Source: Burkholderiales bacterium
Lineage (GTDB): Bacteria > Patescibacteriota > Minisyncoccia > Phycocordibacterales > UBA9973
Assembly (NCBI GenBank): GCA_023701005.1
Contig: JAMPXW010000001.1
Span: 207,843 to 271,842 of the forward strand
DNA: 64,000 nucleotides
Reading direction: 5' to 3'
The position numbers and the translations under genes were made by a program. The stretch's first letter is position 1; every line of letters starts with the position of its first letter. The notes below the pieces were generated by a model, which was not told the origin of the DNA, did no database searches, and worked only from the letters and a program-made list of their open reading frames with translations. Positions 10,727-62,120 of this stretch are shown one piece after another.

Positions 10727-10794
10727 TAATAAGAATAGCTGGTCCCGAAAAATGGCTTTGCCATTTCGGGACTCGCAAAAGAATGGGCTTGCCG

Positions 10795-10820
10795 CGAGAT
10801 GCGGTGGAGCCGCATTTTTC
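10795..10820 (+). terminator. Short terminator-like hairpin plus T-run after smpB, immediately 5' of the tmRNA
   Basis: atgcggtggagccgcat followed by ttttc. Confidence 0.35.
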
Positions 10821-10822
10821 GC

Positions 10823-11220
10823 GGGGATGTCAGGCATAGACGAAAGGCCTAATGTCTAAGATGCATGTCGAGTACGGACGTAATCTCGTAAAAATTCGTT
10901 CAAATGTTAATTGCAAAATTGACTTCTAAAGCTAAAGAATTAGCTTCTCCATACTTCGGTATGAAGGACTTTTCTTTCGCTCCAGCTTTCGCGTAAGCCA
11001 AGGTTGGTGTCTTACTTATAGACTTCCGATATATAAGATAAGGCATAATATTATCGGGATAGGGAAGAAGGAGCTTCGACTTTTTCTAGAAAAACAAAGA
11101 AGATCGATTAAGAATATTTCATTCGCTTAAGAATTTTTAATCTAAAACAAAAAGCGTTTTACACATGTAGACTTCTTTACAGAAACCTTTTGCACCGGGG
11201 TTCAATTCCCCGCATCTCCA
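10823..11220 (+). ncRNA. ssrA: tmRNA (SsrA), about 398 nt, directly downstream of smpB
   Basis: 5' GGGGATG pairs with 3' CATCTCC plus discriminator A. The 3' T-arm is CGGGGTTCAATTCCCCG. The tRNA-like 5' element TAGACGAAAGG is present. An internal tag frame beginning near 10931 encodes ...AKELASPYFGMKDFSFAPAFA and stops at TAA 10994-10996. Confidence 0.7.
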
Positions 11221-11320
11221 CAAAAATAAAAAATATAATGATTATATTTTTGTAGGACCCCGACGGAGGAGGGGTGTAAGAATTTTAATTTTTAGGTTTT
11301 TTGTGCTATGATACTGAATC

Positions 11321-15485: not shown

Positions 15486-17651
15486 TTACTCAAAATGAAA
15501 TTCTTGAGTTTTTTCTTTTACTTTAGATTTGAGTAGAGGGTATTTGGAAAGTTCTGAATCTTCTTCTATTAAGCGTATGGCTTCAGAGCGAGCAGCTTCT
15601 ACCATTTTTATATTTTTAATAGCTTCCATCCCTAGATCAGAAATACCCCATTGTTTTGTACCACCCAATTCTCCAGCTCCACGTAGAGTCAAATCTAATT
15701 CTGCTAATTCAAAACCATTTTTGGCAGTTTTTAATGCTTTTAATCTTTGAATTGTTTTGTCACTTTTGGCATCCGCAAATACATAACAATAAGCTTGATA
15801 ATTACTTCTGATGACTCTTCCACGCAGTTGATGAAGTTGAGCTAAACCAAATCTTTCTGCTCCCTCTATTATTATCATTGTTGCATTTGGCACATTTACT
15901 CCGACCTCTATAACAGATGTTGCACATAATATATTTATTTTACCTTCTGTAAAATTTTGCATTTCTTTTTCTTTTTTTTCTTTACTCATCTTGCTATGCA
16001 ACACACCTATTTCATATTCCTGAAAGACATCTTTTTTTAAACGTTTAGCTTCAGCTATGGCTGATTTGGCTTGAACAGCCATTTCTTTATTTGGATCTGG
16101 TTCGTCTATTCTTGGACAAATCACATATAATTGTCTACCATTTTTTAATTCCTTTCTTATTTCTTCATAAGTTTCTTCGCGTTTGTCAGGGGTTATTATT
16201 TCTGTGATTATTTGTTTTCTTCCTTTAGGCATTTCTGAGAGCAAAGAGAGATCGAGATCTCCATATATTGTAAGTGCAAGTGTGCGGGGAATAGGAGTAG
16301 CTGTCATCGAAAGTAAATGTGGGGCAATGTTGTCTTTACGAACCAATTTTCGTCTTTGGGCTGTTCCGAATCTATGTTGTTCATCTATCACGACTAGTGC
16401 TAGGTTTTTGAATTTAACAGTTTTTTGTATGAGAGCATGCGTGCCTATTAAAATCGGAATTATGCCTTCAGCGGTCCATTTTAGAAGTTGTGTACGAGAA
16501 ATATCTGTCCATCCTGATGGATTTACTTTAGAAGGGAATTTGCGACAGCCGCTACCTGTGATGAGCCCTATGTTTATTGGTAAATGTTTGAAATATTTTA
16601 TAAAAGATTCGAAATGTTGAGTTGCCAATATTTCTGTTGGAGCCATGTATGCAACTTGTAAATTTCCGAAACCTTTTCCTTGGGGAGTCTGTACCACAGT
16701 GGTGTATGCAGCTGTGGCTGCTACAGCTGTTTTTCCACTACCGACATCACCTTCTAGGAGTCTAGACATTGGAAAGTTCTTACCCATATCATCTAAAATA
16801 GTTTGGATGGATTTCTTTTGAGAATCTGTAGGTTCAAAAGGGAAGCGTTTTACGAATTCATCTTTTTCTTTTATGTTTGTTTTTATTTGAAAAGATTTGT
16901 TTTTTCTATATTCTATTTTGTCGTGTTGGCGTTCTAATTGGATACAAAATACTTCTTCGAAAGCGAATCTTTTTCTTGCAGATTCAGCATCTTTTTTGTT
17001 TTTTGGTGAATGTATCCAAAATAATGCTGATTTAATAGAAGGTAAATGATATTTCTCAAGTATTTCTTTTGGTATATAGTCTTTTATATTATCTAATGTT
17101 TTATCTTTTATGATTTCTAAAATTTTATGATAAAACCACTTAGAAGTTATACCACGAGTTTCAACATAAACAGGAAAACCAAAGACCTCACTTTCTTTTT
17201 TCTTTTCGAAATTAAATAAATTATCATGTATATCAATCGGCATTGAATTTACTTTCTTAAATTCAGGATTAGCTAAATATTTACCTCTTTTGTTTTCCAT
17301 TACTTTTCCTGTGAGTTCTACGAATTGTCCTGAGCGAATCATTTTAGCAATGTATGCTTGATTAAACCAGACAACTTTTATTTTTCCAGTTTCATCTATT
17401 ATTTCTCCTTGTGCTCTTAATATTTTGCTTTTATATCCTCGTTTAATATCAGGACTCCAAAATTTTCCATAGACTGTTGCAAATTCTCCAGCTACTAACT
17501 GGCTAATAGGTTTTATCTCACTAATATGAGAATACCGAACAGGAAAATGAAAAAGTAGATCAGCAACAGAAAAAAGTTTTAACTTATTTAAAGCTTTTTT
17601 CTGATTTATATCTAGACGAAATATATTTTCTAATCTGTCAGATAATTTCAT
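15486..17651 (-). CDS. recG: ATP-dependent DNA helicase RecG
   Basis: N-terminal wedge domain, DVGSGKT Walker A, DEQHRFG DEAH-box motif, and the TRG motif region; 721 aa. Confidence 0.9.
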   Translation of the reverse strand: MKLSDRLENIFRLDINQKKALNKLKLFSVADLLFHFPVRYSHISEIKPISQLVAGEFATVYGKFWSPDIKRGYKSKILRAQGEIIDETGKIKVVWFNQAYIAKMIRSGQFVELTGKVMENKRGKYLANPEFKKVNSMPIDIHDNLFNFEKKKESEVFGFPVYVETRGITSKWFYHKILEIIKDKTLDNIKDYIPKEILEKYHLPSIKSALFWIHSPKNKKDAESARKRFAFEEVFCIQLERQHDKIEYRKNKSFQIKTNIKEKDEFVKRFPFEPTDSQKKSIQTILDDMGKNFPMSRLLEGDVGSGKTAVAATAAYTTVVQTPQGKGFGNLQVAYMAPTEILATQHFESFIKYFKHLPINIGLITGSGCRKFPSKVNPSGWTDISRTQLLKWTAEGIIPILIGTHALIQKTVKFKNLALVVIDEQHRFGTAQRRKLVRKDNIAPHLLSMTATPIPRTLALTIYGDLDLSLLSEMPKGRKQIITEIITPDKREETYEEIRKELKNGRQLYVICPRIDEPDPNKEMAVQAKSAIAEAKRLKKDVFQEYEIGVLHSKMSKEKKEKEMQNFTEGKINILCATSVIEVGVNVPNATMIIIEGAERFGLAQLHQLRGRVIRSNYQAYCYVFADAKSDKTIQRLKALKTAKNGFELAELDLTLRGAGELGGTKQWGISDLGMEAIKNIKMVEAARSEAIRLIEEDSELSKYPLLKSKVKEKTQEFHFE

Positions 17652-17654
17652 GTG

Positions 17655-17741
17655 CGGAGGTGGTGAGATTCGAACTCACGGTTCCGATTAGGGAACGGCG
17701 GTTTAGTAAACCGCTACCTTAAGCCACTCGGTCACACCTCC
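17655..17741 (-). tRNA. Type-II (long variable arm) tRNA with discriminator G73, Ser-like, but the anticodon loop TTACTAA gives an apparent anticodon ACU
   Basis: Minus-strand sequence GGAGGTG-TG-ACC...GGT-A-GCGGT-TTACTAA-ACCGC-(18-nt variable arm)-GTGAG-TTCGAAT-CTCAC-CACCTCC-G. It abuts the recG start codon. Confidence 0.55.
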
Positions 17742-17810
17742 TTTCACAAAAAGAGTATATCAGAAAAATGGAAAAAAGATAAGAATATGCTAAAGTAAAT
17801 AAGTAAAAAA

Positions 17811-17902
17811 GGAGCTGTGTCGGAGCGGTCTAACGTACGACTTTGCTAAAGTCGCAGAGGCTTTAAAACCTCTCGGGAGTTCGAATCTCCCCAGCTCCGC
17901 CA
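17811..17902 (+). tRNA. tRNA-Ser (GCU), type II, CCA encoded
   Basis: Acceptor GGAGCTG/CAGCTCC, anticodon stem CGACT/AGTCG with loop TTGCTAA, long variable arm, T-arm GGGAG-TTCGAAT-CTCCC, discriminator G, then CCA. Confidence 0.75.
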
Positions 17903-17998
17903 GAAAATTCGAAAAGTAGTGACAAAACCCTTTAATTTGTGCTACATTTTCAAACTGAAAATTGTTAGAATGTAATAACCCTAAAGGGATTCAAACTT

Positions 17999-18571
17999 AT
18001 GGATTCAGACATTAAAAATCAGATCTTAAAACTTGTCGAAGAAATTACTCCAACTGATGATTTTGAGCGTGAACAAATCGATGATACGATCCTGTGGATT
18101 AAAAGCGGAGCAAAATTGTTTCGTATCCAAAAGCCAGACATTCCTCCAAAACATCTGGTTTCATATTTCATTATCTTTGATCCGAAGATAAACAAAATAC
18201 TTCTCATTGACCACATAAAGGCACAGCTATGGCTTCCGGCCGGTGGACATGTAGAGCCGAACGAACATCCAAAAACAACGGCTGAAAGAGAAGTTGTTGA
18301 GGAGTTAAATACTCAAGCCGAGTTCCTATATGACGGAATATTTTTCCTTACGCAAGCTGTTACCGTAGGTTTGACGGCAGGACATACGGATGTAAGTCTG
18401 TGGTATGTACTTAAAGGTGATTCAAAAATTACTCTCCAATATGATCCTGGAGAATTTAACGGCTACAAATGGTTTAGTCCCGAGGAAATCCTAGATACAC
18501 CGATTGAAAAACTCGATCCACATCTTCATCGGTTTGTGAAAAAATGGATTAAGTATTCCGACACCTCGTAA
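17999..18571 (+). CDS. NUDIX hydrolase
   Basis: Nudix box GGHVEPNEHPKTTAEREVVEELN. Confidence 0.75.
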   Translation: MDSDIKNQILKLVEEITPTDDFEREQIDDTILWIKSGAKLFRIQKPDIPPKHLVSYFIIFDPKINKILLIDHIKAQLWLPAGGHVEPNEHPKTTAEREVVEELNTQAEFLYDGIFFLTQAVTVGLTAGHTDVSLWYVLKGDSKITLQYDPGEFNGYKWFSPEEILDTPIEKLDPHLHRFVKKWIKYSDTS

Positions 18572-31283: not shown

Positions 31284-33035
31284 ATGAGTTTTTTAGAAGA
31301 ATTAGTTAAAAATCAGTTAATAGACAAAACTCAAATAGATGAGATAAAAAATATCGCCAAGGAAAAACATAATGGCAATATAGATGAAGCATTAATTGAG
31401 TTTGGAGTACCAGAAGATAAATCTCTTTTAGTTAAAGGGAGTTATTTGCAGATGCCTGTTAAAAAAGTAGATACTAAAGAATTTTCTTTCGATGTTTTAA
31501 AATATATTCCTGAAGATGCAGCGAAACATTATCATTTTGTTCCGTTGGAATTAAAAGAAGGTGTTTTGGAGATTGGTATAACAGATGGAGAAGATTCACA
31601 AGCCCTTGATGCTTTACAATTTATTTCTGCCAAGATAGGAATTCCATTTAAGATTTTTTTGATTTCAGATTCAGATTATAAAACTATTATTGATACATAC
31701 AGAGGTATTTCTGTACAGGTAGAAGAAGCGCTAAATCAATTAAATGAGGATGAGACAGCGAATACTAAGAGTGCAAATGAATCGAATAATCTCAATAAAG
31801 AGATAAAGAACATAAAGTCAAATGAAGAAGTGAAAATAGTAGAGGATGCTCCTGTTATAAAAATAGTTGCTGTCATATTGCGTAATGCTATAGAAAGTAA
31901 TGCCTCAGATATCCATATAGAAAATATTGGAGAGAAAGTGAAGGTACGTTTTCGAGTGGATGGAAGTCTTCATACTACAATAGTATTACCACCGAATGTC
32001 TATAATGGCATCGTGGCTCGTGTGAAGATATTGGCCAAGCTTCGCTTGGATGAAAAGAGGAAACCACAAGATGGATCTTTTAGTACTAATTTAGATGGAC
32101 ACAAGATTGATTTTCGTGTTTCTACTATGCCTGCTTATTATGGTGAAAAAGTAGTTATTCGTATTTTGGATGCGGAAAAAGGGGTAAAACCATTAGATCA
32201 ACTTGGTTTATCAAAAAGAAATCTTGAAATGATAAGAGAAGCTATAAAAAAACCTTACGGTCTTATTTTGATTACTGGACCTACTGGTTCTGGTAAATCT
32301 ACAACATTATATTCGATGATGAATGAACTTGATAAAGAAACTAGTAATATCGTTTCTTTGGAAGACCCAGTTGAATATCATATGCCTGATATAAACCAAT
32401 CTCAGATGATGCCAGAAATAGGATATACTTTTGCTTCGGGTTTGCGTTCCATACTTCGTCAAGACCCAGATGTCATCATGGTAGGAGAAATTCGTGATAA
32501 AGAAACGGCACAGCTTGCTATTCAAGCAGCTTTGACTGGGCACCTTGTTTTATCTACCTTGCATACCAATAGTGCTATTGGGGCAGTGCCTCGCTTGGTA
32601 GATATGGGAGTGGATCCTTATCTTATAGCACCTACACTTATTTTATCAGTAGCTCAACGTCTAGCGAGGATGGCTTATCCAACTTCTAGGAAACTAGTAC
32701 CGATGGATCCTAGTATAAAACTTCAAATTGAAGATGAATTAAAAGATTTACCGGAAGAATTTAGAAAAGAGATAGTAATAAAAGATCAAATGTATGATAT
32801 TGTCCCTTCTCCTGAATGTCCTTCAGGCACAAAAGGGCGTATTGCTATTTTTGAAATGTTTAAAGTTGGTAAAGAAATGCAGAATATTATTTTGAAAAGT
32901 CCAGTTGATTCTGAAATATACAAAGTAGCTAGAAAAGATGGAATGCTTCTCATGAGAGAAGACGCAATGCTTAAAGCCTTAGATGGCATTATTCCATATA
33001 AAGAAGTTTTCAATTTTGTGAATGATAATGATTAA
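31284..33035 (+). CDS. pilB: Type IV pilus assembly ATPase PilB (GspE family)
   Basis: N1 domain, Walker A LITGPTGSGKSTT, Asp box, Walker B VIMVGEIRD, His box, and the tetracysteine-type segment. Confidence 0.9.
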   Translation: MSFLEELVKNQLIDKTQIDEIKNIAKEKHNGNIDEALIEFGVPEDKSLLVKGSYLQMPVKKVDTKEFSFDVLKYIPEDAAKHYHFVPLELKEGVLEIGITDGEDSQALDALQFISAKIGIPFKIFLISDSDYKTIIDTYRGISVQVEEALNQLNEDETANTKSANESNNLNKEIKNIKSNEEVKIVEDAPVIKIVAVILRNAIESNASDIHIENIGEKVKVRFRVDGSLHTTIVLPPNVYNGIVARVKILAKLRLDEKRKPQDGSFSTNLDGHKIDFRVSTMPAYYGEKVVIRILDAEKGVKPLDQLGLSKRNLEMIREAIKKPYGLILITGPTGSGKSTTLYSMMNELDKETSNIVSLEDPVEYHMPDINQSQMMPEIGYTFASGLRSILRQDPDVIMVGEIRDKETAQLAIQAALTGHLVLSTLHTNSAIGAVPRLVDMGVDPYLIAPTLILSVAQRLARMAYPTSRKLVPMDPSIKLQIEDELKDLPEEFRKEIVIKDQMYDIVPSPECPSGTKGRIAIFEMFKVGKEMQNIILKSPVDSEIYKVARKDGMLLMREDAMLKALDGIIPYKEVFNFVNDND

Positions 33036-33522: not shown

Positions 33523-34581
33523 ATGGACTATAAAAAAAAGTTTGAAGATCTTATTTTGACAGTAATCCACCAAGGTGGGTCAGATCTTCATTTGGGTGTA
33601 GGTAAAGTTCCAGCCATACGTGTAGCTGGAGAACTTATTTTCCTTGTAAAAAATCCTGTTTTAACAAAAGAAGATGTATTGGGTATTTTGGGAGAAATTT
33701 TAGATAAAACAAAATTAAATAAATTCATTGAAGAACAGGAAATTGATTTTTCTTATGACTATCGAGGAGAAGCTCGTCTTCGAGGTAATGCATTTTTTCA
33801 AAAAGGTTTGATAAGTGTTGCCTTAAGACTTGTCCCTCAAGTCAAATCAATTTCGGAATTGCATCTACCTCCGATCATTTCAGAATTAGCTCGCAAAAAG
33901 CAAGGTTTCTTTTTGGTTGTGGGTCCTGTAGGGCAAGGTAAATCTACTACTCTTTCAGCCATGGTGAATCTGATAAATAATGAACAAACAAAACATATCG
34001 TGACGATTGAAGATCCTATTGAATATGTTTTCACTCCAAATAAATCTATTATAGATCAACGTGAAGTGGGTATTGATACGAAAGATTTTTATACTGCACT
34101 GAAATCAGTTTTTAGAGAGGATGTGAATGTTATCATGATAGGAGAGATGCGTAATCCTGAAACTATTTCTGCTGCTGTGACAGCTGCTGAGACGGGACAT
34201 CTAGTACTTTCTACTTTGCACACAAATAATGCTTCACAAACCATAGACAGAATTATAGATTCTTTCCCAGGAGCACAACAAGATCAAATTCGTTTACAGC
34301 TGGCCTCTAGTTTGTTGGGAATATTTTCTCAAAGATTGATTCCTAGAATATCTGGGGGGCTTATTCCTGCTTATGAATTATTATTGAACAACAATGCTGT
34401 TTCAAATTTGATAAGAGAAAAACGTACGAAAGAAATTGATGTAGTTATAGAGACGGGAATGGAATCTGGAATGATTGATTTGAATCATTCATTGATAGAG
34501 CTGGTGAGAGCGGGAGAGATTACAATAGAAAATGCATATCAATTTTCTCTTAATCCAAAAGGGCTTGAGCGCATATTATAA
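33523..34581 (+). CDS. pilT: Twitching-motility retraction ATPase PilT
   Basis: Walker A VVGPVGQGKSTT, Walker B VIMIGEMRN, and the PilT-specific AIRNLIRE-like motif AVSNLIREKR. Confidence 0.85.
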   Translation: MDYKKKFEDLILTVIHQGGSDLHLGVGKVPAIRVAGELIFLVKNPVLTKEDVLGILGEILDKTKLNKFIEEQEIDFSYDYRGEARLRGNAFFQKGLISVALRLVPQVKSISELHLPPIISELARKKQGFFLVVGPVGQGKSTTLSAMVNLINNEQTKHIVTIEDPIEYVFTPNKSIIDQREVGIDTKDFYTALKSVFREDVNVIMIGEMRNPETISAAVTAAETGHLVLSTLHTNNASQTIDRIIDSFPGAQQDQIRLQLASSLLGIFSQRLIPRISGGLIPAYELLLNNNAVSNLIREKRTKEIDVVIETGMESGMIDLNHSLIELVRAGEITIENAYQFSLNPKGLERIL

Positions 34582-34624: not shown

Positions 34625-35827
34625 ATGTTATTTAAATATAAAGCAGTAGATGAAAAAGGAATAAATAAAGAAGGAGAAATCGATGCAGCAAATCGTGATG
34701 TTGCTATCAGTGGTCTTCAGAGAAGGGGATTGATTGTCATTTCTATTAAGGATGAAGGAGAGAAAAAAAGTTTTTTATCTTTTGGAGGTAAAATTCCAAT
34801 GAAAGATGTTGTGATTCTTTCTCGTCAGATTTCAACTTTATTTGAAGCTCAAGTATCTGCACTAAAGGCATTTACAATGCTTGCATCTAACGCAGAAAAT
34901 AAATTATTAGCAAAGAAACTTACAATAATAAGTGATGATTTGCAGGCAGGTATATCTATTTCTGGTGCTTTGGCTAAACATCCAGAAGTTTTTTCTAATT
35001 TTTATGTGAACATGGTAAAGGTTGGAGAAGAAACTGGTAAATTAAATGAAACTTTTGATCACTTGGCAAATTATTTAAATCGTCAATATGCTCTTACAGC
35101 TAAAACAAAGAATGCTCTTATTTATCCAGCGTTTGTTATTTTTACATTTTTTGTAGTTATGGGATTGATGTTTGTAGTCGTTATACCTAAACTTTCTGCT
35201 ATTATTCTTGATTCCGGACAAGAACCTCCAATATATACAAAGATTGTTATAGCTCTTTCAAATTTCTTTGTTGATTATGGTTTTCTTGTAATTATATTTT
35301 TAATATTATCAGGGATCTGGGCATGGAGACTTTCAGCAACAGAAAAAGGAAAAGAATATATAGACAAAATGAGGCTTTCTATACCAGCAGTAGGTAATCT
35401 ATACAAGAAACTTTATCTTTCAAGAATAGCAGACAATATGGATACGATGCTTAGCTCTGGTATCCCTATCGTTAGAGCCATAGACATAACCTCAGATGTT
35501 GTCGGTAGTAGGGTGTATCAAGAAGTTTTAAAAAAGGTTGCTGACGGAGTAAAATCAGGGTTATCTTTTTCTGCTGCTTTTGAAAGACACAAAGAACAAG
35601 TTCCTGGTATTATGGTGCAGATGGTGAAAGTCGGGGAAGAGACGGGTTCTTTGGGTAAGATTTTAAAGACTTTGGCAGATTTTTATAAAAGAGAAGTGGA
35701 TGATGCTGTGGACACATTGGTTGGACTTATTGAGCCAGTAATGATAGTCGTTTTGGGCTTGGGGGTTGGTGTTCTTTTGGTTTCTGTATTAATGCCGATT
35801 TACAATTTGGCAGGAGGGATACAATAG
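34625..35827 (+). CDS. pilC: Type IV pilus platform protein PilC (GspF family)
   Basis: Two GspF repeats, each with a conserved Gx5Gx4L block. Confidence 0.85.
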   Translation: MLFKYKAVDEKGINKEGEIDAANRDVAISGLQRRGLIVISIKDEGEKKSFLSFGGKIPMKDVVILSRQISTLFEAQVSALKAFTMLASNAENKLLAKKLTIISDDLQAGISISGALAKHPEVFSNFYVNMVKVGEETGKLNETFDHLANYLNRQYALTAKTKNALIYPAFVIFTFFVVMGLMFVVVIPKLSAIILDSGQEPPIYTKIVIALSNFFVDYGFLVIIFLILSGIWAWRLSATEKGKEYIDKMRLSIPAVGNLYKKLYLSRIADNMDTMLSSGIPIVRAIDITSDVVGSRVYQEVLKKVADGVKSGLSFSAAFERHKEQVPGIMVQMVKVGEETGSLGKILKTLADFYKREVDDAVDTLVGLIEPVMIVVLGLGVGVLLVSVLMPIYNLAGGIQ

Positions 35828-35992
35828 ATAGGATGTGGATAACTTTTTTGCATATATATAATGATAAAAGTTATAATATAGGTATTAAAATAAAGTCGAA
35901 AATCTTCATTTAGAAGAATGAAGAAAAAATTATTAGTTTCCGCCAAGCGCGGACGAGCTTTAGCTCGAAATATTATTAGTAAGAAAAAAATT

Positions 35993-36448
35993 ATGAAGAA
36001 TTTTAAAAAAGGTTTTACATTGATTGAATTGTTGGTTGTTGTTGCAATCATCGGTATTTTGGCATCAGTTGTTTTGGCATCATTAAATAGTGCTAGAACA
36101 AAAGGAGCAGATGCTGCTATCAAAGCAAACTTAGCAAACATTCGTGCACAAGCTGAAATTTTATATGATACAGATTCAAATTATGCTAATGTATGTACAA
36201 ATACTACAGTAGCAGCTGCAATTAATTCAGCAAAGACTTCTGCTGGTATTACTGCTGCAACAGTTACAACTTTAGCTACAGCAGGAACAGCTACTACAGC
36301 TGTTTGTCACGTAGCAGCAGACAATGCTTCTTGGGCAGCTGAAGTTCCATTGAAGTCTTCAAGCGCAAATAGTTGGTGTGTAGATAGTACAGGTGCTTCT
36401 ATGCAACTCACAGGATATCTTGGCGCTAGTGACGTAACTTGTAATTAA
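35993..36448 (+). CDS. Type IV major pilin paralog 1 (prepilin with a 7-aa leader, MKNFKKG|FTLIELL)
   Basis: Class III signal (G-FTLIELLVVVAIIG) with Glu at +5. The ORF-track start at 35918 is probably too far upstream. Confidence 0.7.
   Translation: MKNFKKGFTLIELLVVVAIIGILASVVLASLNSARTKGADAAIKANLANIRAQAEILYDTDSNYANVCTNTTVAAAINSAKTSAGITAATVTTLATAGTATTAVCHVAADNASWAAEVPLKSSSANSWCVDSTGASMQLTGYLGASDVTCN
36023..36124. repeat. 102-bp block 100% identical to 36636..36737 (pilin paralogs 1 and 2), inside a region of roughly 170 bp with more limited flanking similarity
   Basis: Direct comparison of the two pilin 5' regions. Confidence 0.85.
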
Positions 36449-36563
36449 TATATATTTATATACAAAAAAACTACCCTGCTTGGGGTAGTTTTTTTGTTTT
36501 TATATGTGATATAATAAATATAGAAATGGGGCCGATTTATTAATATATTATTAAGTTAATTTT

Positions 36564-37109
36564 ATGAAGAATTTATCAAAAAGTTTCAAGCAAGGTTCCG
36601 CCTCGGCTTGCCGAAGACGAGACGGGTTTACGTTAATTGAATTGTTGGTTGTTGTTGCAATCATCGGTATTTTGGCATCAGTTGTTTTGGCATCATTAAA
36701 TAGTGCTAGAACAAAAGGAGCAGATGCTGCTATCAAATCTAATTTAGCAAATATGCGTGCGCAAAGTGAAATTTTGTATGACAAGAATGGGAGGTATGAT
36801 ATAGATACGACGGCGACAACAGTTGCGGCTGCTGCATGTACAAATACAGCCAATAGTCTTTTTGCTGATCCAACTATATGGGGTCAAGTTAACAGTGCTT
36901 TGTCTTCTTCTGGTGGTTTGGATTCATGTATGGTTGGGCCATCAGCGGATTCATGGGCAGTCGTAGTGCAAATGAAACAAAATCCAAATACGGAAGCATG
37001 GTGTGTAGATAGCTCTGGTGCTTCAAAAAAAGAAACTCTTGATGGTTCTCCCATTCAAACTGAATTAAATGCTCTTGTTACTGATGGAATAATAGCTAAG
37101 TGTGATTAA
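36564..37109 (+). CDS. Type IV pilin paralog 2 with an extended 21-aa leader carrying a 10-codon GC-rich insert (SASACRRRDG)
   Basis: MKNLSKSFKQG-SASACRRRDG-FTLIELLVVVAIIG. Identical to paralog 3 except for the 30-nt insertion ttccgcctcggcttgccgaagacgagacgg. Confidence 0.7.
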   Translation: MKNLSKSFKQGSASACRRRDGFTLIELLVVVAIIGILASVVLASLNSARTKGADAAIKSNLANMRAQSEILYDKNGRYDIDTTATTVAAAACTNTANSLFADPTIWGQVNSALSSSGGLDSCMVGPSADSWAVVVQMKQNPNTEAWCVDSSGASKKETLDGSPIQTELNALVTDGIIAKCD

Positions 37110-37127
37110 TATTAAAAATTATTTATT

Positions 37128-37652
37128 ATGAAGAATTTATCAAAAAGTTTCAAGCGAGGTTTTACGTTAATCGAATTGTTGGTTGTTGTTGCTATCATCG
37201 CCATTTTGGTTGCGGTGATTATGGCGTCGACTACGGAATCTAGAAATAGGGGGGCAGATGCAGGTATAAAAACGAATCTTAATACCATAAAAGGAGCAGC
37301 AGAATTGTTTTATGTTAATCCTTTAACGGTCGCACCTACAAAGCCTGCTTTTTCTTTTGGTAGTGATATTAGTGGGAATTGTCCTTCTTATAGCGCTAGT
37401 TCGAACGTTATGTTTCAAAGAGATAAAAACATAGCTGATGCTATTGCAGAAGCCACCAAGAGATCTAGTGTAAATTATGCTTTTTGTGATGCGAATGCTA
37501 CAAACTGGGCTGTTGGTGTCGTTTTGAAGACTGATGCTAAATCTGCTTGGTGTGTTGATAGTTCTAACGCTTCTAAGAAGGTTACTCGTGTTGCTAATGG
37601 CGCAATGGTCATAAGTGATGTCATCGACACAGCCACTCATTTGTGTAAATAG
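37128..37652 (+). CDS. Type IV pilin paralog 3 (11-aa leader, MKNLSKSFKRG|FTLIELL)
   Basis: Class III signal peptide; divergent C-terminal domain with a Cys pair. Confidence 0.7.
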   Translation: MKNLSKSFKRGFTLIELLVVVAIIAILVAVIMASTTESRNRGADAGIKTNLNTIKGAAELFYVNPLTVAPTKPAFSFGSDISGNCPSYSASSNVMFQRDKNIADAIAEATKRSSVNYAFCDANATNWAVGVVLKTDAKSAWCVDSSNASKKVTRVANGAMVISDVIDTATHLCK

Positions 37653-37668
37653 TTATTAATATAAAATT

Positions 37669-38448
37669 ATGACTTTTTCTCTTGCAATAATTTTTTTTGG
37701 ATTGGGTTTAATAATAGGAAGTTTTTTGAATGTTGTTATATTTAGATTTAATACACAACGTTCATTTGGGGGCAGGAGTGGATGTATGGTTTGTCAAAAG
37801 AAACTTTCTTGGTATGAGCTTTTCCCAGTTTTTAGTTTTATTTTCTTGAGAGGGAGATGCAAGGGTTGTAAAACAAAAATTTCCATTCAATATCCTATAG
37901 TAGAATTATTATCTGGATTTATATTCTTATCAATATTTTTGAAGTTTCAAGATGTTTTCTATTTTGACACTTTGAATTTTACTATATCTTATGCATATTA
38001 TGTGGCTATTTTTTCTATGTTTCTCGTTATTGCAGTTTATGATTATAAACATAAAATAATACCAGATATTTTCTCAATTTTTTTGGGAGTAATAACTTTC
38101 ATAGGTTTATTTCTATTTGAAGATTTTGCTTTTTCTCCGCATATTCCATCCTTGTTGCAATTTTTATCTGGGATATTCTTAGCATTACCTTTTGCTTTTA
38201 TTTGGCTTATTTCTAAAGGAACTTGGATGGGCTTGGGTGATGCGAAGCTTTCTCTCAGCTTGGGGTGGCTTTTGGGGTACGGAATGTTACTCTCAGCGGG
38301 GGTTTTGGCTTTTTGGTCTGGAGCTATTGTGGGAATATTTCTTTTACTTTTTTCAAAAAAATATGGAATAAAAAGTGAAATACCTTTTGCCCCATTTTTA
38401 GTTTTAGGAGTTTTTCTTTCGTTCATTTTCGAATTAAGATTTTTTTAG
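37669..38448 (+). CDS. pilD: Prepilin peptidase (A24 family) PilD
   Basis: N-terminal tetra-Cys (CMVCQKK...CKGCK), catalytic Asp pair in a polytopic membrane protein, and a GDAKL motif. Confidence 0.85.
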   Translation: MTFSLAIIFFGLGLIIGSFLNVVIFRFNTQRSFGGRSGCMVCQKKLSWYELFPVFSFIFLRGRCKGCKTKISIQYPIVELLSGFIFLSIFLKFQDVFYFDTLNFTISYAYYVAIFSMFLVIAVYDYKHKIIPDIFSIFLGVITFIGLFLFEDFAFSPHIPSLLQFLSGIFLALPFAFIWLISKGTWMGLGDAKLSLSLGWLLGYGMLLSAGVLAFWSGAIVGIFLLLFSKKYGIKSEIPFAPFLVLGVFLSFIFELRFF

Positions 38449-40224: not shown

Positions 40225-42769
<2,545 letters not shown>

Positions 42770-43416: not shown

Positions 43417-44220
43417 GTGAAAAAGATAATCAAGAAAATAATCCTGTTAAACAAAAAAGAAGGGGAGACTCCTTTAGAAGCTTTAGAGAATTTTCGTGAT
43501 AAAAATCCTCAATATTTAAGTGTGCCTATGACTTATGCTGGAAGGTTAGATCCTATGGCCAGTGGGGTTCTTTTGATATTAGCTGGAGAAGAAACAAAAA
43601 ATAAGGAGAAATATTTGAACAAAGATAAAGAATATGAATTTGAAGTTTTGTTTGGTTTTAGTACTGATACTTTTGATATTTTAGGAAAAATTTCCGCTAG
43701 GCAAGACCTAGCGGAGAGCAAAGAAGTAAATGTAAAAGAATTAGAGAAAGAGATAAAAAAGAATATAAAAAATTTTGTTGGTGAAAGTATACAAAAATAT
43801 CCGATGTATTCTTCTAAAACAGTAAAAGGTAAACCATTATTTATGTATGCTAGAAATGGAGAAGATGTGGAGATCCCAGAGAGAAAGATTTTTATATATA
43901 AACTAAAATTAGAAAAAATAAGAATGATCGATAATAAAAAATTATTTAAAAATATAGAAAAAAGAATAAAAAAAGTTAAAGGGCCCGCCTCGACTCGCGG
44001 AGAGTCGACGCGAGGCGGGGATTTTAGGCAAAAAGAAATTTTAAAGATATGGGAAAATAATTTGAAGTTTAAAGATTTTAGATTTAAAAAGTTTTATATA
44101 GCTAAATTGAAAGTTAAATGTAGTAGTGGTACATATGTTAGGAATATTGCATATTCTTTGGGTAAAAAGTTAAATATTCCATCTTTGGCTTTTTCAATAA
44201 AAAGAACGAAAATATGTTAA
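43417..44220 (+). CDS. truB: tRNA pseudouridine synthase (TruB-like) carrying an in-frame 12-aa GC-rich insert (PASTRGESTRGG)
   Basis: Catalytic motif AGRLDPMASGVLLILAG (the pseudouridine-synthase catalytic Asp). Confidence 0.7.
   Translation: MKKIIKKIILLNKKEGETPLEALENFRDKNPQYLSVPMTYAGRLDPMASGVLLILAGEETKNKEKYLNKDKEYEFEVLFGFSTDTFDILGKISARQDLAESKEVNVKELEKEIKKNIKNFVGESIQKYPMYSSKTVKGKPLFMYARNGEDVEIPERKIFIYKLKLEKIRMIDNKKLFKNIEKRIKKVKGPASTRGESTRGGDFRQKEILKIWENNLKFKDFRFKKFYIAKLKVKCSSGTYVRNIAYSLGKKLNIPSLAFSIKRTKIC
43981..44020. repeat. 40-nt GC-rich imperfect palindrome (gggcccgcctcgactcgcggagagtcgacgcgaggcgggg) lying in-frame inside truB
   Basis: cccgcctcg pairs with cgaggcggg; inner cgactc pairs with gagtcg. 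About 80% GC in an AT-rich gene. Confidence 0.7.
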
Positions 44221-48668: not shown

Positions 48669-50504
48669 ATGAAAATTTCTTATAATTGGCTTAAGTGGTA
48701 TATTCCAGATGTTCCTAAACCAGAAGAATTAGTAAATCTTTTTACTTTTCATGTTTGTGAAGTTGAAAGTTTTGACAAAACGGCGGATGGTGATTTTATT
48801 TTTGATATAAAAATTTTACCAGATAGAGCACATGATTTACTCAGTCATTTTGGAGTGGCTCGGGAGATCTCTTCTTTACTTGATATTCAATTTATTGATC
48901 CAATTTTGAAGTATAAAAATCCACCATCAAAAGAGACTCAATTAATTATAGATGTTCAGTCTGAAAAATGTCGTCGCTATGTAGGTAGAATCGTTCGAAA
49001 TATAAAAATAGGTCCTAGTCCAGATTGGGTAGTAAAACATTTAGAATCAATAGGACAAAGAAGTATTAATAACATGGTAGATGCAGCTAATTTGGTAATG
49101 TATAATTGTGGACAACCCACGCATGTTTTTGATTTAAATAAGATGAATCAAGGTCTAATAGTAAGACAAGCAGAAGATGGTGAAGATATTACAACGTTAG
49201 ACAATAAAGAATTAAAACTAAAAACTTCAGATCTAGTAATTGCAGATTATTCTAAAGCTCTTGCTATTGCTGGTATAAAAGGAGGGAAGATAGCAGAGGT
49301 TGATAGTGAAACCACAGATGTTGTTTTAGAGGTTGCTAATTTTGATCCTACTTCTGTACGTAAAACTGCCCAAGCTTTAAATATTTTTACGGACGCAAAA
49401 AAACGTTTTGAGAATGATTTATCTCCAGAGTTATGTGATCGTGCTATGTTAGAATTTTCTGCTTTGATTTTAGAAATGTGTCCGGAGGCATCCTTTGAAG
49501 ATATTGTAGATATTTATCCAAAAAAACAAGAAATTAGAGAAGTATCTTTTAGTCTGAGAAAAATATCAAAAATTTTAGGTGTAGAAGTTTCTTTAGAAGA
49601 GATAAAAGATATTTTGCGAAGATATAATTTTGAATATATAGAAGATGGTGAGTTTATAAAAATAAAAATACCATTCATGCGATTTGATCTGAACATAGAA
49701 GAAGACATAGCAGAAGAAATAGGCAGAATAATGGGGTATGATAAAGTAAAGCCAAAAATTCCTGAAATAAAATTTACACCCAAGAGTAATACAATATATG
49801 AGAAGATTGTTTTTGTTAGGAATAAATTTTTGAATGATGGATATTCAGAAGTTATGACTTATGTATTTAGAGATAAAGGAGAAGTGGAAGTCCTTGCTTC
49901 TGCTTCAGATAAAAAGTTTTTAAGAACTAATCTCACTGACGGGCTTAAAGAGAGTTTAAAATTAAACCAACTTAATTCTCCCTTGCTTGAAATGAGTGAA
50001 ATAAAAATTTTTGAAATCGGAACTGTCTTTAAGAAAACTGGTGAAGAAATGCATGTTGCTTATGCAGATAAAAAAGAAATAAAAGAAATGAAATTAGAAG
50101 AATTTTGTTTTAATTCTCCTCTTGAGGAGTACCCAAAGGGGGAGGTGAAGTATTTCCACCCCGGCACAAGTGCCACCCCTCAAGAGGGGAATAAATTTAA
50201 ACCTTGGTCAATATATCCTTTCATCTCTCGTGATGTAGCTGTTTGGGTACCTGAGAGAGAAGATCCTTTAATATTAAAAAAATTGCTTATAGATAATGCC
50301 ACAGATCTTTTGATAAAAGAACCTTATTTGTTTGATTCATTTACAAAACCTGCCTCGACGCAAGGCGAGGATGGAAAAACTTCTTATGCTTTTAGGCTTG
50401 TTTTTCAGTCGTATGAAAGAACTTTAAAAGATGAAGAAATAAATGAAATTATGACTAATATAACCAATAAAATCAAGGAGAAAAATGATTGGCAGGTTAG
50501 GTAA
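48669..50504 (+). CDS. pheT: Phenylalanine-tRNA ligase beta subunit (short form), with two GC-rich palindromic patches lying in-frame within it
   Basis: B3/B4 domain (NNMVDAANLVMYNCGQPTHVFD), B5 domain and a C-terminal FDX-ACB-like domain; 611 aa. Confidence 0.85.
   Translation: MKISYNWLKWYIPDVPKPEELVNLFTFHVCEVESFDKTADGDFIFDIKILPDRAHDLLSHFGVAREISSLLDIQFIDPILKYKNPPSKETQLIIDVQSEKCRRYVGRIVRNIKIGPSPDWVVKHLESIGQRSINNMVDAANLVMYNCGQPTHVFDLNKMNQGLIVRQAEDGEDITTLDNKELKLKTSDLVIADYSKALAIAGIKGGKIAEVDSETTDVVLEVANFDPTSVRKTAQALNIFTDAKKRFENDLSPELCDRAMLEFSALILEMCPEASFEDIVDIYPKKQEIREVSFSLRKISKILGVEVSLEEIKDILRRYNFEYIEDGEFIKIKIPFMRFDLNIEEDIAEEIGRIMGYDKVKPKIPEIKFTPKSNTIYEKIVFVRNKFLNDGYSEVMTYVFRDKGEVEVLASASDKKFLRTNLTDGLKESLKLNQLNSPLLEMSEIKIFEIGTVFKKTGEEMHVAYADKKEIKEMKLEEFCFNSPLEEYPKGEVKYFHPGTSATPQEGNKFKPWSIYPFISRDVAVWVPEREDPLILKKLLIDNATDLLIKEPYLFDSFTKPASTQGEDGKTSYAFRLVFQSYERTLKDEEINEIMTNITNKIKEKNDWQVR
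50116..50189. repeat. GC-rich cluster of four short hairpins/palindromes inside pheT (ctcctcttgaggag ... ggtgaagtatttccacc ... ggcacaagtgcc ... cccctcaagagggg). The outer pair forms a 10-bp inverted repeat
   Basis: Read directly from sequence. Encodes ...EEYPKGEVKYFHPGTSATPQEGNK.... Confidence 0.55.
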
Positions 50505-56613: not shown

Positions 56614-57585
56614 ATGGCTAACAGGCACCTTTCAAGATCAATAGTACTTCAGACACTTTTCGAGTGGGATTTTATGTCTGCCACAGAAAAATCTAGCGCC
56701 TGGGACGATAAAAAAATAAAAGAAGCTTTAAATAGAAATCTTAAGGAGTTTGCTCCTGGACTTGAGGATGATGTTTTTGTCATTTCTTTAGTTGATTCGA
56801 TTTTAAAAAAATGTGATGTTATTGACGAGATAATAACAAAAGCAGCTCCAGATTGGCCTTTAGATAAAATATCAGTTGTTGATAGAAATATATTGAGAAT
56901 TGGCTTATCAGAGCTTTTGTTTGGAGATAGAAATGAAGTTCCTCCTAAGGTTGCTATCAATGAAGCCATCGAATTGGCAAAAACTTTTGGTGGTGAAAAT
57001 TCTGGTAAATTTGTAAATGGAGTTCTCGGTGCTGTATATAAAGAAATAGGAGAGCCAGGTAAAGAACAAGTAAGTAAAAAAAAGAAAGAAGAAGAGCCTC
57101 TAGATATTACAAAACTTCCAGTAGAAAAATTAGGTGGTGCTTTGATTTATGCAAAGAAACCAGCCTCGACTAGTACGAGTCTAGGCGGGGGGAATAATAT
57201 TTTATTTGCATTAGTTCATGATGTGTTTGGATATTGGACTTTATCAAAAGGAAAGATAGGAGATACAGAAGAAACAAAAGGAGAAACTACAGAAGAAGGA
57301 ACAATAAGAAAAATAAAAGAAGAAATTGGTTTGGATATAACAATAAAAGAAAAGATAGGAGAAAATGAATATGTTGCTACTCATCCAGAAAAAGGGAAGA
57401 CTTTGAAAAAGGTGACATATTTCTTGGCAGAAAGTGAATATAGAGAAATTCAATTGGGAGAATCTGGTGGTTTGGATAATGCAAAATGGTTTCAACTTTC
57501 TGAGATTCCAGAACTTCGTATTTACAATGATATTATTCCACTTGTCACAAAGGCCATAGAAATATTGAGCAAAAAAGAAATTTAG
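56614..57585 (+). CDS. nusB: NusB antitermination factor fused to a C-terminal NUDIX hydrolase domain, with an in-frame GC-rich insert ([11 protein letters not shown]) in the NUDIX domain
   Basis: N-terminus [20 protein letters not shown]...[26 protein letters not shown] is NusB. C-terminus [28 protein letters not shown] is a Nudix box. Confidence 0.7.
57160..57192. repeat. GC-rich GCCTCGAC-family element in-frame inside the nusB-NUDIX gene (ccagcctcgactagtacgagtctaggcgggggg)
   Basis: Shares the 5' core cc-n-gcctcgac with the truB and pheT copies. Confidence 0.6.
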
Positions 57586-60627: not shown

Positions 60628-61038
60628 ATGAGGTGCCTCATGGAAATTAATTCAGCGAGAATTCTCGTAGTAGATGATGTTGCAGCTTGCACTGCAATCA
60701 TCATGAAAATTTTAAAAGAAAATTCTTTTAAAAATGTTATATCCGCTTCTAATGGTGTAGATGCTATTAGCTTATGTGCTAATTCTGAGTTTGATTTAGT
60801 ACTAATTGGTCCAGGACGTTCGGTATTAAATAGTTTTGAAACCATCGGCACGATAAGAGACATACCAATACCTCTTTTTAAAAAAATCCCTATCATTGCG
60901 ATGATAAAAGATGAAAAAGATTCAAAAGAAGAAGTTTTATTTGCAGGAGCAACAGACGTTATTTTAAAGCCTATAAAAAAAGAAGATCTTGTAGGCATAT
61001 TAAAAAAATATTTAGAAAAGGAACCTAAGGAAGATTAA
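60628..61038 (+). CDS. Orphan single-domain response regulator (CheY-like receiver)
   Basis: ILVVDDVAACTAIIMKILKE...DLVLIG...K receiver pattern. Confidence 0.65.
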   Translation: MRCLMEINSARILVVDDVAACTAIIMKILKENSFKNVISASNGVDAISLCANSEFDLVLIGPGRSVLNSFETIGTIRDIPIPLFKKIPIIAMIKDEKDSKEEVLFAGATDVILKPIKKEDLVGILKKYLEKEPKED

Positions 61039-61039
61039 C

Positions 61040-61095
61040 TTGGCTCGGTGTGTTTTATGACGCACCGAGCCTTTTTTATTTAAATTTTAATTTTT
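61040..61095. repeat. Left copy of a 56-bp direct repeat; it contains a terminator hairpin (ggctcggtgtgttttatgacgcaccgagcc plus T-run). The right copy is 62065..62120, with 42 nt identical and then 2 mismatches
   Basis: Direct comparison of the two copies in the sequence. Confidence 0.85.
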
Positions 61096-62013: not shown

Positions 62014-62064
62014 AGGATTTCATTAAACTTTTTAAAATTGCAGAAGAAATTTTGGATGTTTGAT

Positions 62065-62120
62065 TTGGCTCGGTGTGTTTTATGACGCACCGAGCCTTTT
62101 TTATTTGAATTTTAGTTTTT
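62065..62120. repeat. Right copy of the 56-bp direct repeat and terminator hairpin. Its distal end encodes the last five codons of the convergent 62101..63990 gene
   Basis: Identical to 61040-61081, then near-identical. Confidence 0.85.

Follow-up and report, generated by a model that had tools for sequence, protein, structure and literature searches.

An in-frame 30-nt GC-rich palindrome in a Patescibacteria type IV prepilin leader is probably a tolerated copy of a dispersed mobile mini-palindrome

Introduction

In-frame colonisation of genes by selfish palindromes is known mainly from Rickettsia and has so far been treated as a peculiarity of that group. Here we analyse a 30-nt GC-rich imperfect palindrome that lies in frame in the leader-peptide codons of the second of three tandem type IV pilin genes (pilin 2) in a 64,000-nt stretch of contig JAMPXW010000001.1, hereafter called the window (GC content 32%), together with similar inserts elsewhere in the window, in related genomes and in a metagenome collection. 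The pilin 2 insert is probably a copy of a dispersed, selfish, mobile mini-palindrome, non-coding by origin, that is carried as a tolerated passenger at a permissive site. Taken alone, this insertion looks harmless and would be of modest interest, but it leads to a population of in-frame mini-palindromes in the smallest bacterial genomes that is dense and, it appears, has not been described.

The closest described system in behaviour is that of the Rickettsia palindromic elements (RPEs; Ogata et al. 2000, 2002), which are ~100-150 bp long and lie in frame in unrelated, often essential genes (summarised in PMC10969869). The elements described here share with RPEs that they are palindromic selfish repeats of several coexisting families in a small AT-rich genome, placed in frame and apparently translated at permissive places. 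They differ from RPEs in size (24-80 nt, with 30 nt for the pilin element) and in host, which is Patescibacteria, and there is no sequence similarity between the two; the pilin element is also strongly GC-rich against its 32% background. Furthermore, while an RPE encodes a conserved peptide in one frame, the pilin element is used in at least four of the six frames.

In form, the closest elements are the GC clusters of yeast mitochondria (e.g. GC42), which are GC-rich hairpins of 30-50 bp that are mostly intergenic and have an AG (or TAG) target duplication (PMC4478555), and related hairpin elements occur in fungal and sponge mitochondria (PMC2800124). Common to GC clusters and the present elements are short GC-rich hairpin repeats in an AT-rich genome, presence or absence between close strains, nesting or merging, and a mobilising enzyme that is not known. 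In contrast with GC clusters, the Patescibacteria copies lie mostly inside genes, in frame, with a target duplication of at most 1 nt, and their host is a bacterium rather than an organelle. In the literature that we searched, where coverage of subscription journals was thin, we found no description of in-frame GC-rich palindromes in Patescibacteria or the Candidate Phyla Radiation.

Results

A 30-nt palindrome lengthens the leader peptide of pilin 2

Type IV prepilins have class III signal peptides, in which a hydrophilic leader ending in glycine is followed by ~21 hydrophobic residues with glutamate at position +5. Pilin 2 has this arrangement (MKNLSKSFKQGSASACRRRDG|FTLIELLVVVAIIGILASVVLASL, with a Gly-ended hydrophilic leader, a hydrophobic stretch and Glu at +5), its match to PF07963 is above the cutoff, and prepilin peptidase and assembly genes lie in its neighbourhood. 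The features concerned are as follows.

35993-36448, + strand: pilin paralog 1, MKNFKKG|FTLIEL, 7-residue leader without insert; Pfam N_methyl 1.3e-9
36564-37109, + strand: pilin paralog 2, 181 aa, 21-residue leader MKNLSKSFKQGSASACRRRDG|FTLIEL; Pfam N_methyl 1.4e-9, residues 17-42
36597-36626 (equally 36598-36627), + strand: 30-nt insertion TCCGCCTCGGCTTGCCGAAGACGAGACGGG, a 30-column gap against pilins 1 and 3
36598-36625, no strand assigned: imperfect palindrome, arms 36598-36609 and 36614-36625, loop GCCG at 36610-36613
37128-37652, + strand: pilin paralog 3, MKNLSKSFKRG|FTLIEL, "empty site" GGT|TTT at 37158-37163; Pfam N_methyl 1e-8
37669-38448, + strand: prepilin peptidase (PilD-type) gene; Pfam A24_N_bact 1e-29, Peptidase_A24 1.2e-7

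When the three pilin 5' ends were aligned, pilin 2 read ATGAAGAATTTATCAAAAAGTTTCAAGCAAGGT, 30 further nucleotides and TTTACGTTAATTGAA, and pilin 3 read ATGAAGAATTTATCAAAAAGTTTCAAGCGAGGT followed directly by TTTACGTTAATCGAA. The 30 extra bases fall precisely where the cleavage site's Gly codon meets its Phe codon, with a boundary that is ambiguous by 1 nt owing to the flanking T (TCCGCC...ACGGG or CCGCC...ACGGGT). They lengthen the leader from 11 to 21 residues and encode the peptide SASACRRRDG (net charge +2), the last codon of which, GGG (36624-36626), supplies Gly-1, so that Gly-1|Phe+1 is kept and the original Gly is now residue -11. A reading of the sequence alone (the sequence-only reading) had claimed a clean 10-codon insertion with the translations MKNLSKSFKQG-SASACRRRDG|FTLIEL and MKNLSKSFKRG|FTLIEL and a preserved cleavage motif, and all of this is borne out by the exact 30-column gap, the intact G|F, FTLIEL with its Glu5 and the N_methyl match. 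Its further statement that pilin 2 is otherwise identical to pilin 3 went too far, as 1 of the 33 leader bases upstream of the gap differs (CAA/CGA, Q/R) and the similarity of the two genes drops off ~40 nt past the insert.

Inspection of the sequence revealed no in-frame ATG, GTG or TTG between the insert and the Gly codon, and therefore the insert is necessarily translated if pilin 2 is expressed; it has no stop codon in any of the six frames. Its GC content is 70%, compared to 32% for the window. The palindrome arms (12+12 nt) are complementary at 10 of 12 positions, with C.A at 36601/36622 and G.A at 36606/36617, and the termini CCGCCTCG ... CGAGACGG form terminal inverted repeats that are 7/8 complementary. 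As RNA, the + strand folds at -12.1 kcal/mol (z -0.12) and the - strand at -15.1 kcal/mol (z -1.88), the antisense fold being the better one, in which the C.A mismatch turns into G.U. The hairpin alone is statistically unremarkable, and it is its recurrence elsewhere that lifts it above chance. An inverted-repeat finder with 6-nt exact seeds reported nothing at the insert; both this tool and a strict hairpin census (at most one mismatch) miss it because its stem is broken every 3-4 bp. At the gathering threshold, Rfam found only a tmRNA and three tRNAs in the whole window, and a permissive scan of 35800-37700 gave sub-threshold matches centred on the terminator of pilin 1 and none at the insert. 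A terminator or attenuator role was dropped since there is no T run past the TTT of the Phe codon; a CRISPR repeat, a tRNA or rRNA fragment and a DNA-uptake sequence were dropped as origins of the 30-mer, there being no supporting feature and the insert families being too diverse.

The same 30-mer occurs in other pilin leaders and in unrelated genes

For comparison, 80 loci were pulled with PilC from Candidatus Nomurabacteria/Paceibacteria genomes (69-86% identity), and a metagenome collection was scanned with a 21-mer from the element; L numbers below denote the relatives' loci or contigs. The element has the consensus (T)CCGCCTCGGCTTGCCGAAGGCGAGACGGG(T) and has relatives that end in CCGCCTCG/CGAGGCGG. 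Copies that are 96-100% identical were found at the following places, the four named genes being assigned by Pfam.

Pilin leaders: L056 (two), L084 (two), L090/L100, L091
Other contexts: L082, L089, L092, L093, L094/95, L096/101
L089, TsaD: ..EKL-PVSPSASRGG-KVKLPRP..
L094, GluRS: ..FAKKE-TRLAFGKPRR-KGKFILRLEDTD
L096, HlyD family: ..GDP-SRLRQAEA-GARL..
L082, FemAB family

The window contains one exact copy of the 30-mer and the whole metagenome collection ~12 distinct copies, half of them in pilin leaders. Three other Nomurabacteria species carry the element (29-30/30 identical) at the same leader position, and the two pilins of L056 read ..KKGSASACRRRDG|FTLIEL and ..KKGFTSACRRRDG|FTLIEL. In L056, L084 (two pilins each) and L091, the identity to the window is no more than 71-77% for the pilus-operon DNA and 96-100% for the element. 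The orthologs of pilin 2 (at most 74% identity) mostly have short leaders without an insert, e.g. MKNFKKG|, and a few have inserts of other families.

These copies also bear on whether the insert could be an assembly or sequencing artefact, i.e. a chimeric join or a mis-assembled repeat, which the sequence-only reading had named as the finding that would undo it. The one point in its favour is that the source is a metagenome-assembled contig. At least four further data sets, assembled independently, have this insert at an identical codon boundary (GenBank MFTF01, which is L056, and L084, L090/L100 and L091 from JGI), which excludes an artefact for practical purposes and leaves it a negligible probability.

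The non-pilin copies lie in frame inside long open reading frames (ORFs), where three further frames of the element and its reverse orientation are used, on AT-rich contigs that have no DNA similarity to the window. The element is thereby read in at least four frames, as SASACRRRDG, PVSPSASRGG, TRLAFGKPRR and SRLRQAEA. The TsaD host contig belongs to a Patescibacteria metagenome-assembled genome (MAG), and the GluRS, HlyD-like and FemAB-like hosts are characterised only as AT-rich contigs. Precisely the 10 residues of the TsaD insert are missing from orthologs with 83-92% identity, and at the DNA level the L089 element lies between native TTA and AAA codons, the flanking AAAGTTA repeat being native gene sequence. 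In both the pilin 2/3 pair and the TsaD filled/empty pair, the filled site is longer by exactly 30 nt, and no more than 1 nt (T/A) is shared at the junction. The two comparisons are independent and agree on one unit of 30 nt, without a target duplication. The left flank ends in T at 7 of 8 distinct sites (TTTT, TTAT, CTTT, GGTT and others), with no fixed motif.

Matches in the high-GC contigs L081, L083, L085-88 and L097-99 were discarded as chance or LysR-type coding matches. No match was found when viral contigs were scanned with the 21-mer, which gives no hint of a phage vector. When the other leader and LigA insert families were searched by BLAST against the loci, no dispersed copies were seen, ~20 kb per genome being too little for this purpose; only family 4, the pilin 30-mer, was traced outside pilins, by means of the metagenome scan.

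Three further observations were made on these contigs. At L089 2252-2317, TsaD has another GC-rich insert of 30 nt with a different sequence (PLRRSEGEAS), which 19/19 aligned orthologs lack. TsaD length varies from 334 to 406 residues in the clade, owing to such inserts. At L093 13520-13620, the 30-mer is nested in another GC-rich palindromic repeat (..GTCTCGACTCGGCCGCTCGCCTCGCCTTCGCGAGAG[element]CGAAGCGGGTCGAGCCGAGGCGGAC..), indicating that elements insert into one another.

Related hairpin inserts fill LigA, TruB and other genes

The sequence-only reading had also assigned the insert to a recurring GC-rich element type, and palindromic kin do occur in the window, in TruB, PheT, the linker of a NusB-NUDIX fusion and an intergenic region. 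The motif GCCTCG is found 12 times in the window against 4.95 expected, and none of 100 shuffles reached 12. The hairpin inserts and candidate members are as follows.

658-683: intergenic GC-rich palindromic member
41024-41057 (approximate), + strand: ligA GC-rich hairpin insert 1; -15 kcal/mol, z -2.61; absent from most of 48 LigA orthologs
41995-42025, + strand: ligA hairpin insert 2, in the zinc-finger loop; palindromic-unit family "AAAGGTCGGACCTT"
43984-44019, + strand: exact 36-nt palindrome CCCGCCTCGACTCGCGGAGAGTCGACGCGAGGCGGG in truB (TruB_N, Pfam), encoding PASTRGESTRGG; fold -23.9, z -2.42
50347-50375, + strand: candidate member in pheT, ..FTKPASTQGEDGKTS..; CCTGCCTCGACGCAAGGCGAGG
57160-57192, + strand: candidate member in the linker of the NusB-NUDIX fusion gene, CCAGCCTCGACTAGTACGAGTCTAGGCGGGGGG

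The truB palindrome has perfect 9-bp terminal inverted repeats (CCCGCCTCG/CGAGGCGGG, 9/9), which are the same ends as those of the pilin element. It sits between GGG (a Gly codon) and GAT TTT, with up to 3 nt (GGG) of ambiguity. The site is empty in more than 10 orthologs, and in L006 and L007 this codon boundary is occupied by another palindrome, also of 36 nt.

The zinc-finger domain of the window's LigA has 39 residues compared to a 27-position Pfam profile. Among 48 full-length LigA orthologs, we counted 61 lineage-specific inserts of at least 5 residues, mostly GC-rich hairpins, which gather at four hot columns; there, 20-40% of genomes have some insert. The 58 inserts of at least 6 residues have a mean GC of 0.53 compared to 0.38 for the gene and a median folding z of -2.55, with 62% below -2. 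No strand bias was detected, 21 inserts folding better in the sense and 24 in the antisense direction (Wilcoxon p=0.12). This equality indicates that the inserts are DNA palindromes rather than selected mRNA structures. The insert in the LigA of L012 and that in a pilin leader of L014 belong to the same family. Turnover of the hairpin inserts is recent, as seen in L006 and L007: along 17 kb of sequence with 95% identity, they differ in two LigA hairpin inserts and a 33-nt insert in the leader of a minor pilin, and all of their coding indels are multiples of three.

An attempt to find dispersed families by clustering the GC-rich patches of 81 loci was abandoned, as orthologous conserved coding segments (e.g. 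Walker motifs) dominated. Several observations concern ligA itself. The three inserts by which L006 and L007 differ are at L006 15412, L007 15836 and L007 13384; those in LigA are second copies of the palindromic unit AAAGGTCGGACCTT (peptide RSDL), and since these copies are direct and inverted repeats at once, in-place amplification is suggested. In L022, ligA has an in-frame stop (~18900), and in L070 it is split over several frames (16377-18379), so that these genes may be either pseudogenes or MAG assembly errors. The region 3' of ligA in L007 contains a duplicated tRNA 3' fragment (17182-17221 and 17330-17385) and 223-nt and 560-nt indels relative to L006 at 17703 and 18755, which together may be an integration remnant at a tRNA gene.

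Pilin leaders repeatedly gain hairpins, and the paralogs exchange sequence

Leaders of at least 15 residues were found in ~60 of 266 pilin-like genes in the relatives. Many of these long leaders contain hairpin inserts, which comprise at least seven families, occur in both major and minor pilins and are always in frame and always Gly-ended. Some are bounded by target repeats (GGNTTTAC ... GGGTTTAC; AAAGGTTT ... AAAGGTTT). We also counted leader hairpins with a GC and minimum free energy threshold. Gene-internal control windows passed this threshold too often (550/1321), and accordingly we make no claim of enrichment and use leader lengths and visible insert families instead.

The region 5' of pilin 1 also has a GC-rich insertion.

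35929-35979, + strand: insertion in the 5' untranslated region (UTR) of pilin 1; direct repeat ATTATTAG (35929-35936 and 35972-35979) around two GC hairpins (35937-35971)

The hairpins have 5-bp stems (TCCGC-CAAGC-GCGGA and CGAGC-TTTA-GCTCG) and together fold at -13.9 kcal/mol (z -2.45). A homologous double hairpin is present in L005 and L009, where the stems are altered with pairing kept, and the site is empty in L004, L056, L075 and L002. The sequence-only reading had called this patch related to the pilin 2 insert; it is indeed a small GC hairpin insertion and alike in kind, but it belongs to a different sequence family. As a separate observation, a conserved AAGTCGAAA box (~35896-35904; also in L001-L009, L022, L056 and L075) lies between a promoter-like TATAAT and the start codon of pilin 1. 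Variable GC hairpins are inserted directly 3' of this box, which may be the transcription start or a regulatory site.

Pilin 2 has a mosaic structure. It resembles pilin 3 in the leader and the first 9 bases of the mature part, and from mature nt 10 to 111 it matches pilin 1 without a difference, giving 102 identical consecutive bases in the mature N-terminus (comparison of 36014-36124 with 36627-36737). The tandem pilin paralogs have thus clearly recombined, and the mosaic is evidence of gene conversion.

We considered whether the insertion disables the gene, with a doubled leader containing RRRD that the peptidase does not recognise and pilin 2 decaying or silent. As one of three paralogs, pilin 2 could tolerate such a loss. 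The ORF is, however, intact over 181 codons, it retains Gly-1, Phe+1 and Glu5, and its hydrophobic segment matches that of pilin 1 with 100% identity. In addition, every relative with a leader insert preserves the frame and the terminal Gly, which is a signature of continued selection, and processed prepilin leaders are known to be Gly-ended and 6-26 residues long (PMC4471445). Inactivation therefore seems very unlikely. With its 21 residues, the pilin 2 leader resembles the long class III leaders of type IVb pilins and Flp, which are likewise hydrophilic, positive, Gly-ended and cleaved at the cytoplasmic face; it differs from them in that its length is not a family trait but stems from a short, type IVa-like leader that recently received an insertion, as comparison with the empty paralog shows.

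We also considered whether the palindrome is kept in the pilin leader for a function, either as an mRNA stem-loop 34 nt past the start codon that tunes translation or stability of one paralog or as a DNA cruciform, bordering the conserved N-terminal block, that stimulates or delimits recombination between paralogs, analogous in function to the structure-dependent pilin variation of Neisseria. This would account for half of the distinct copies of a rare element lying in pilin leaders at a constant site, frame and orientation, for its far better conservation between species than that of the adjacent leader codons, for the pilin 3/pilin 1 junction that lies a few bases past the insert, and for the gathering of GC hairpins in the pilin 1 5' UTR, with stem changes among L005, L009 and the window that preserve pairing. 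On the other hand, the mRNA strand is the one with the C.A mismatch and folds like its shuffles, with the antisense strand folding better; most orthologous pilins have no insert; the same element occurs in TsaD, GluRS, HlyD-like and FemAB-like genes, which are outside any pilin logic; and the LigA inserts have no sense-strand preference. We regard a retained function as unlikely.

Alternatively, the inserts could be of local origin only and arise without transposition, by template switching or hairpin-primed synthesis that makes inverted copies of adjacent sequence, and then spread by gene conversion and natural transformation among the nearly identical pilin N-termini. The target repeats around some leader inserts, the duplication in L006 and L007 LigA of a palindromic unit that was already next door, and the pilin 2 mosaic, which shows that conversion occurs, are all as this explanation would have it. 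It fails to explain why an identical 29-30-mer lies in four unrelated genes on contigs without DNA similarity to the window, or how the TsaD copy came to lie between native codons with no source sequence nearby, as local synthesis could not repeatedly produce one 30-mer. As the sole process, local origin is quite improbable.

A mobile, tolerated palindrome is the probable explanation

We favour the interpretation that the pilin 2 insert is a mobile mini-palindrome. The palindrome would circulate in AT-rich genomes (the pilin-bearing hosts being Nomurabacteria and one other host a Patescibacteria MAG) and would have landed, or been copied by pilin-pilin recombination, exactly between the Gly-1 and Phe+1 codons. 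The pilin gene would stay intact since the 30 nt are whole codons, the target duplication is at most 1 nt and the insert is stop-free in six frames, and in the orientation and frame used the terminal GGG would recreate the obligatory Gly-1. The ribosome would read through, adding SASACRRRDG to the cytoplasmic leader, and the prepilin peptidase encoded 560 nt downstream would remove the whole 21-residue leader, leaving the mature pilin unchanged and the insertion presumably neutral. Tolerance would thus follow from the leader being cleaved off and from the element's own GGG restoring Gly-1, and the pilin insert would correspond to the hairpin inserts by which surface loops are filled in LigA, TruB and TsaD. 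A reversed element would end in CGG (Arg) and destroy the cleavage site, which fits the single orientation seen in pilins, as does common descent.

With respect to how such an element might move, two further classes of bacterial repeats are relevant. Repetitive extragenic palindromic (REP) elements and REPINs are imperfect palindromes, extragenic by definition and present in many copies per genome, that have a conserved tetranucleotide at the foot of the hairpin and are mobilised by RAYT, transposases of the IS200/IS605-type Y1 kind. Bacterial MITEs (miniature transposable elements with inverted repeats; Correia/NEMIS, ERIC, BOX, RUP) are usually longer than 50-100 bp, have target-site duplications and derive from recognisable insertion sequences. 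The pilin element resembles REP elements as a 20-40 nt imperfect palindrome without target duplication and with a T-rich left flank at 7 of 8 sites, features that agree with transposition of the REP/IS200 type, in which a hairpin guides single-strand movement; a hairpin-dependent route of this kind is our guess. Unlike REP elements, it has one exact copy in 64 kb, and its documented copies are chiefly intragenic, which places it outside the REP definition. With MITEs it shares being non-autonomous and dispersed, occasional in-frame fusion and terminal inverted repeats (7/8 in the pilin element and 9/9 in TruB), but the Patescibacteria elements are shorter and lack a fixed-length target-site duplication at the pilin 2/3, TsaD and TruB sites; no parent insertion sequence was found either, none having been searched for in the 64 kb.

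Several points weigh against this interpretation. No transposase or other mobilising function was identified within the 64-kb window, although no search for the enzyme was made. The 30-mer is rare, and random insertion followed by tolerance leaves the share of its copies in pilin leaders unexplained. Site, frame and orientation do not vary among those pilin copies, which could represent one event spread by conversion or transformation, and a conservation of 96-100% despite ~25% divergence of the flanks requires either very recent spread or a constraint on sequence. The leader inserts bounded by target-derived repeats and the units duplicated in place hint at growth by template switching for some families, and given this home-grown look more than one process may feed the insert pool. 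Finally, cleavage of the 21-residue leader is a prediction from its sequence. For the pilin share and the conservation beyond that of the flanks, the simplest answer is that the highly conserved N-termini of pilins let the element spread by conversion or transformation, for which the mosaicism seen in pilin 2 would be a help.

A more far-reaching proposal, which we advance tentatively and consider possible rather than probable, is that these inserts make up an undescribed Patescibacteria class of GC-rich palindromic mobile elements of ~24-80 nt (often 30 or 36) that are whole-codon and duplication-free, cross between distant lineages, insert in frame in essential genes and preferentially land or are retained at the Gly-1|Phe+1 site. 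On this proposal, the elements would be open in all six frames, would supply the glycine of the cleavage site and might promote exchange between pilin paralogs. Such a class would imply a mechanism dedicated to mobilisation, and it would continually provide the smallest bacterial proteomes with new peptide loops. The near-identity of the 30-mer across divergent hosts points to a mobilisation system that is active and transferable.

The same strategy as in Rickettsia, in a miniature and dense form, would suggest that small AT-rich genomes repeatedly come to have their genes colonised by palindromes; LigA and TsaD, with more than one insert per gene, and the lengthening of about one-fifth of pilin leaders argue for such recurrence. 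It would also explain part of the length variation and of the "lineage-specific insertions" of Patescibacteria proteins, and it cautions annotators and users of structure prediction that GC-rich loops of 8-27 residues in these proteins may be parasitic DNA rather than functional motifs. The pilins would moreover constitute a natural experiment on what prepilin peptidase tolerates upstream of Gly-1, with the cleaved leader serving as a safe harbour.

Pilus neighbourhood and other features of the window

Two more features belong to the pilin locus.

34625-35827, + strand: ORF for a pilC-like platform protein, directly 5' of the pilin genes; 69-86% identical orthologs in 80 genomes
36462-36497, + strand: terminator-like hairpin 3' of pilin 1, 16-pair stem followed by a T run

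Because the terminator-like hairpin separates pilins 1 and 2, pilin 2 probably has its own promoter, for which a TGnTATAAT-like sequence at 36507-36515, spotted by eye, is a candidate. Upstream lie a pilB-like ORF (31284-33035) and a pilT-like ORF (33523-34581), both named from their own sequence only; among the pilus neighbours, Pfam was run on the peptidase only, and the pilC assignment is by orthology. A homology search found an NCBI protein (P0001) from a "Burkholderiales bacterium" MAG that is identical to pilin 2, although an exact-protein look-up for pilin 2 returned no record. Judged by PilC, LigA and TruB, every neighbour is a Candidatus Nomurabacteria/Paceibacteria genome, and the "Burkholderiales" label of the P0001 source is probably wrong (a binning or labelling error).

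Elsewhere in the window, the tmRNA gene (10823-11223, + strand; RF00023, 126.6 bits) is flanked or overlapped by GC-rich patches at 10781-10826 and 11250-11281 that are unrelated to the palindromes. An intergenic 67-nt repeat, 91% identical between its copies, is present at 61029-61095 and 62054-62120, 1025 nt apart. The two copies share one 30-nt GC hairpin without any difference, GGCTCGGTGTGTTTTATGACGCACCGAGCC, with T6 after it, and may be either a duplicated terminator or a dispersed hairpin element.

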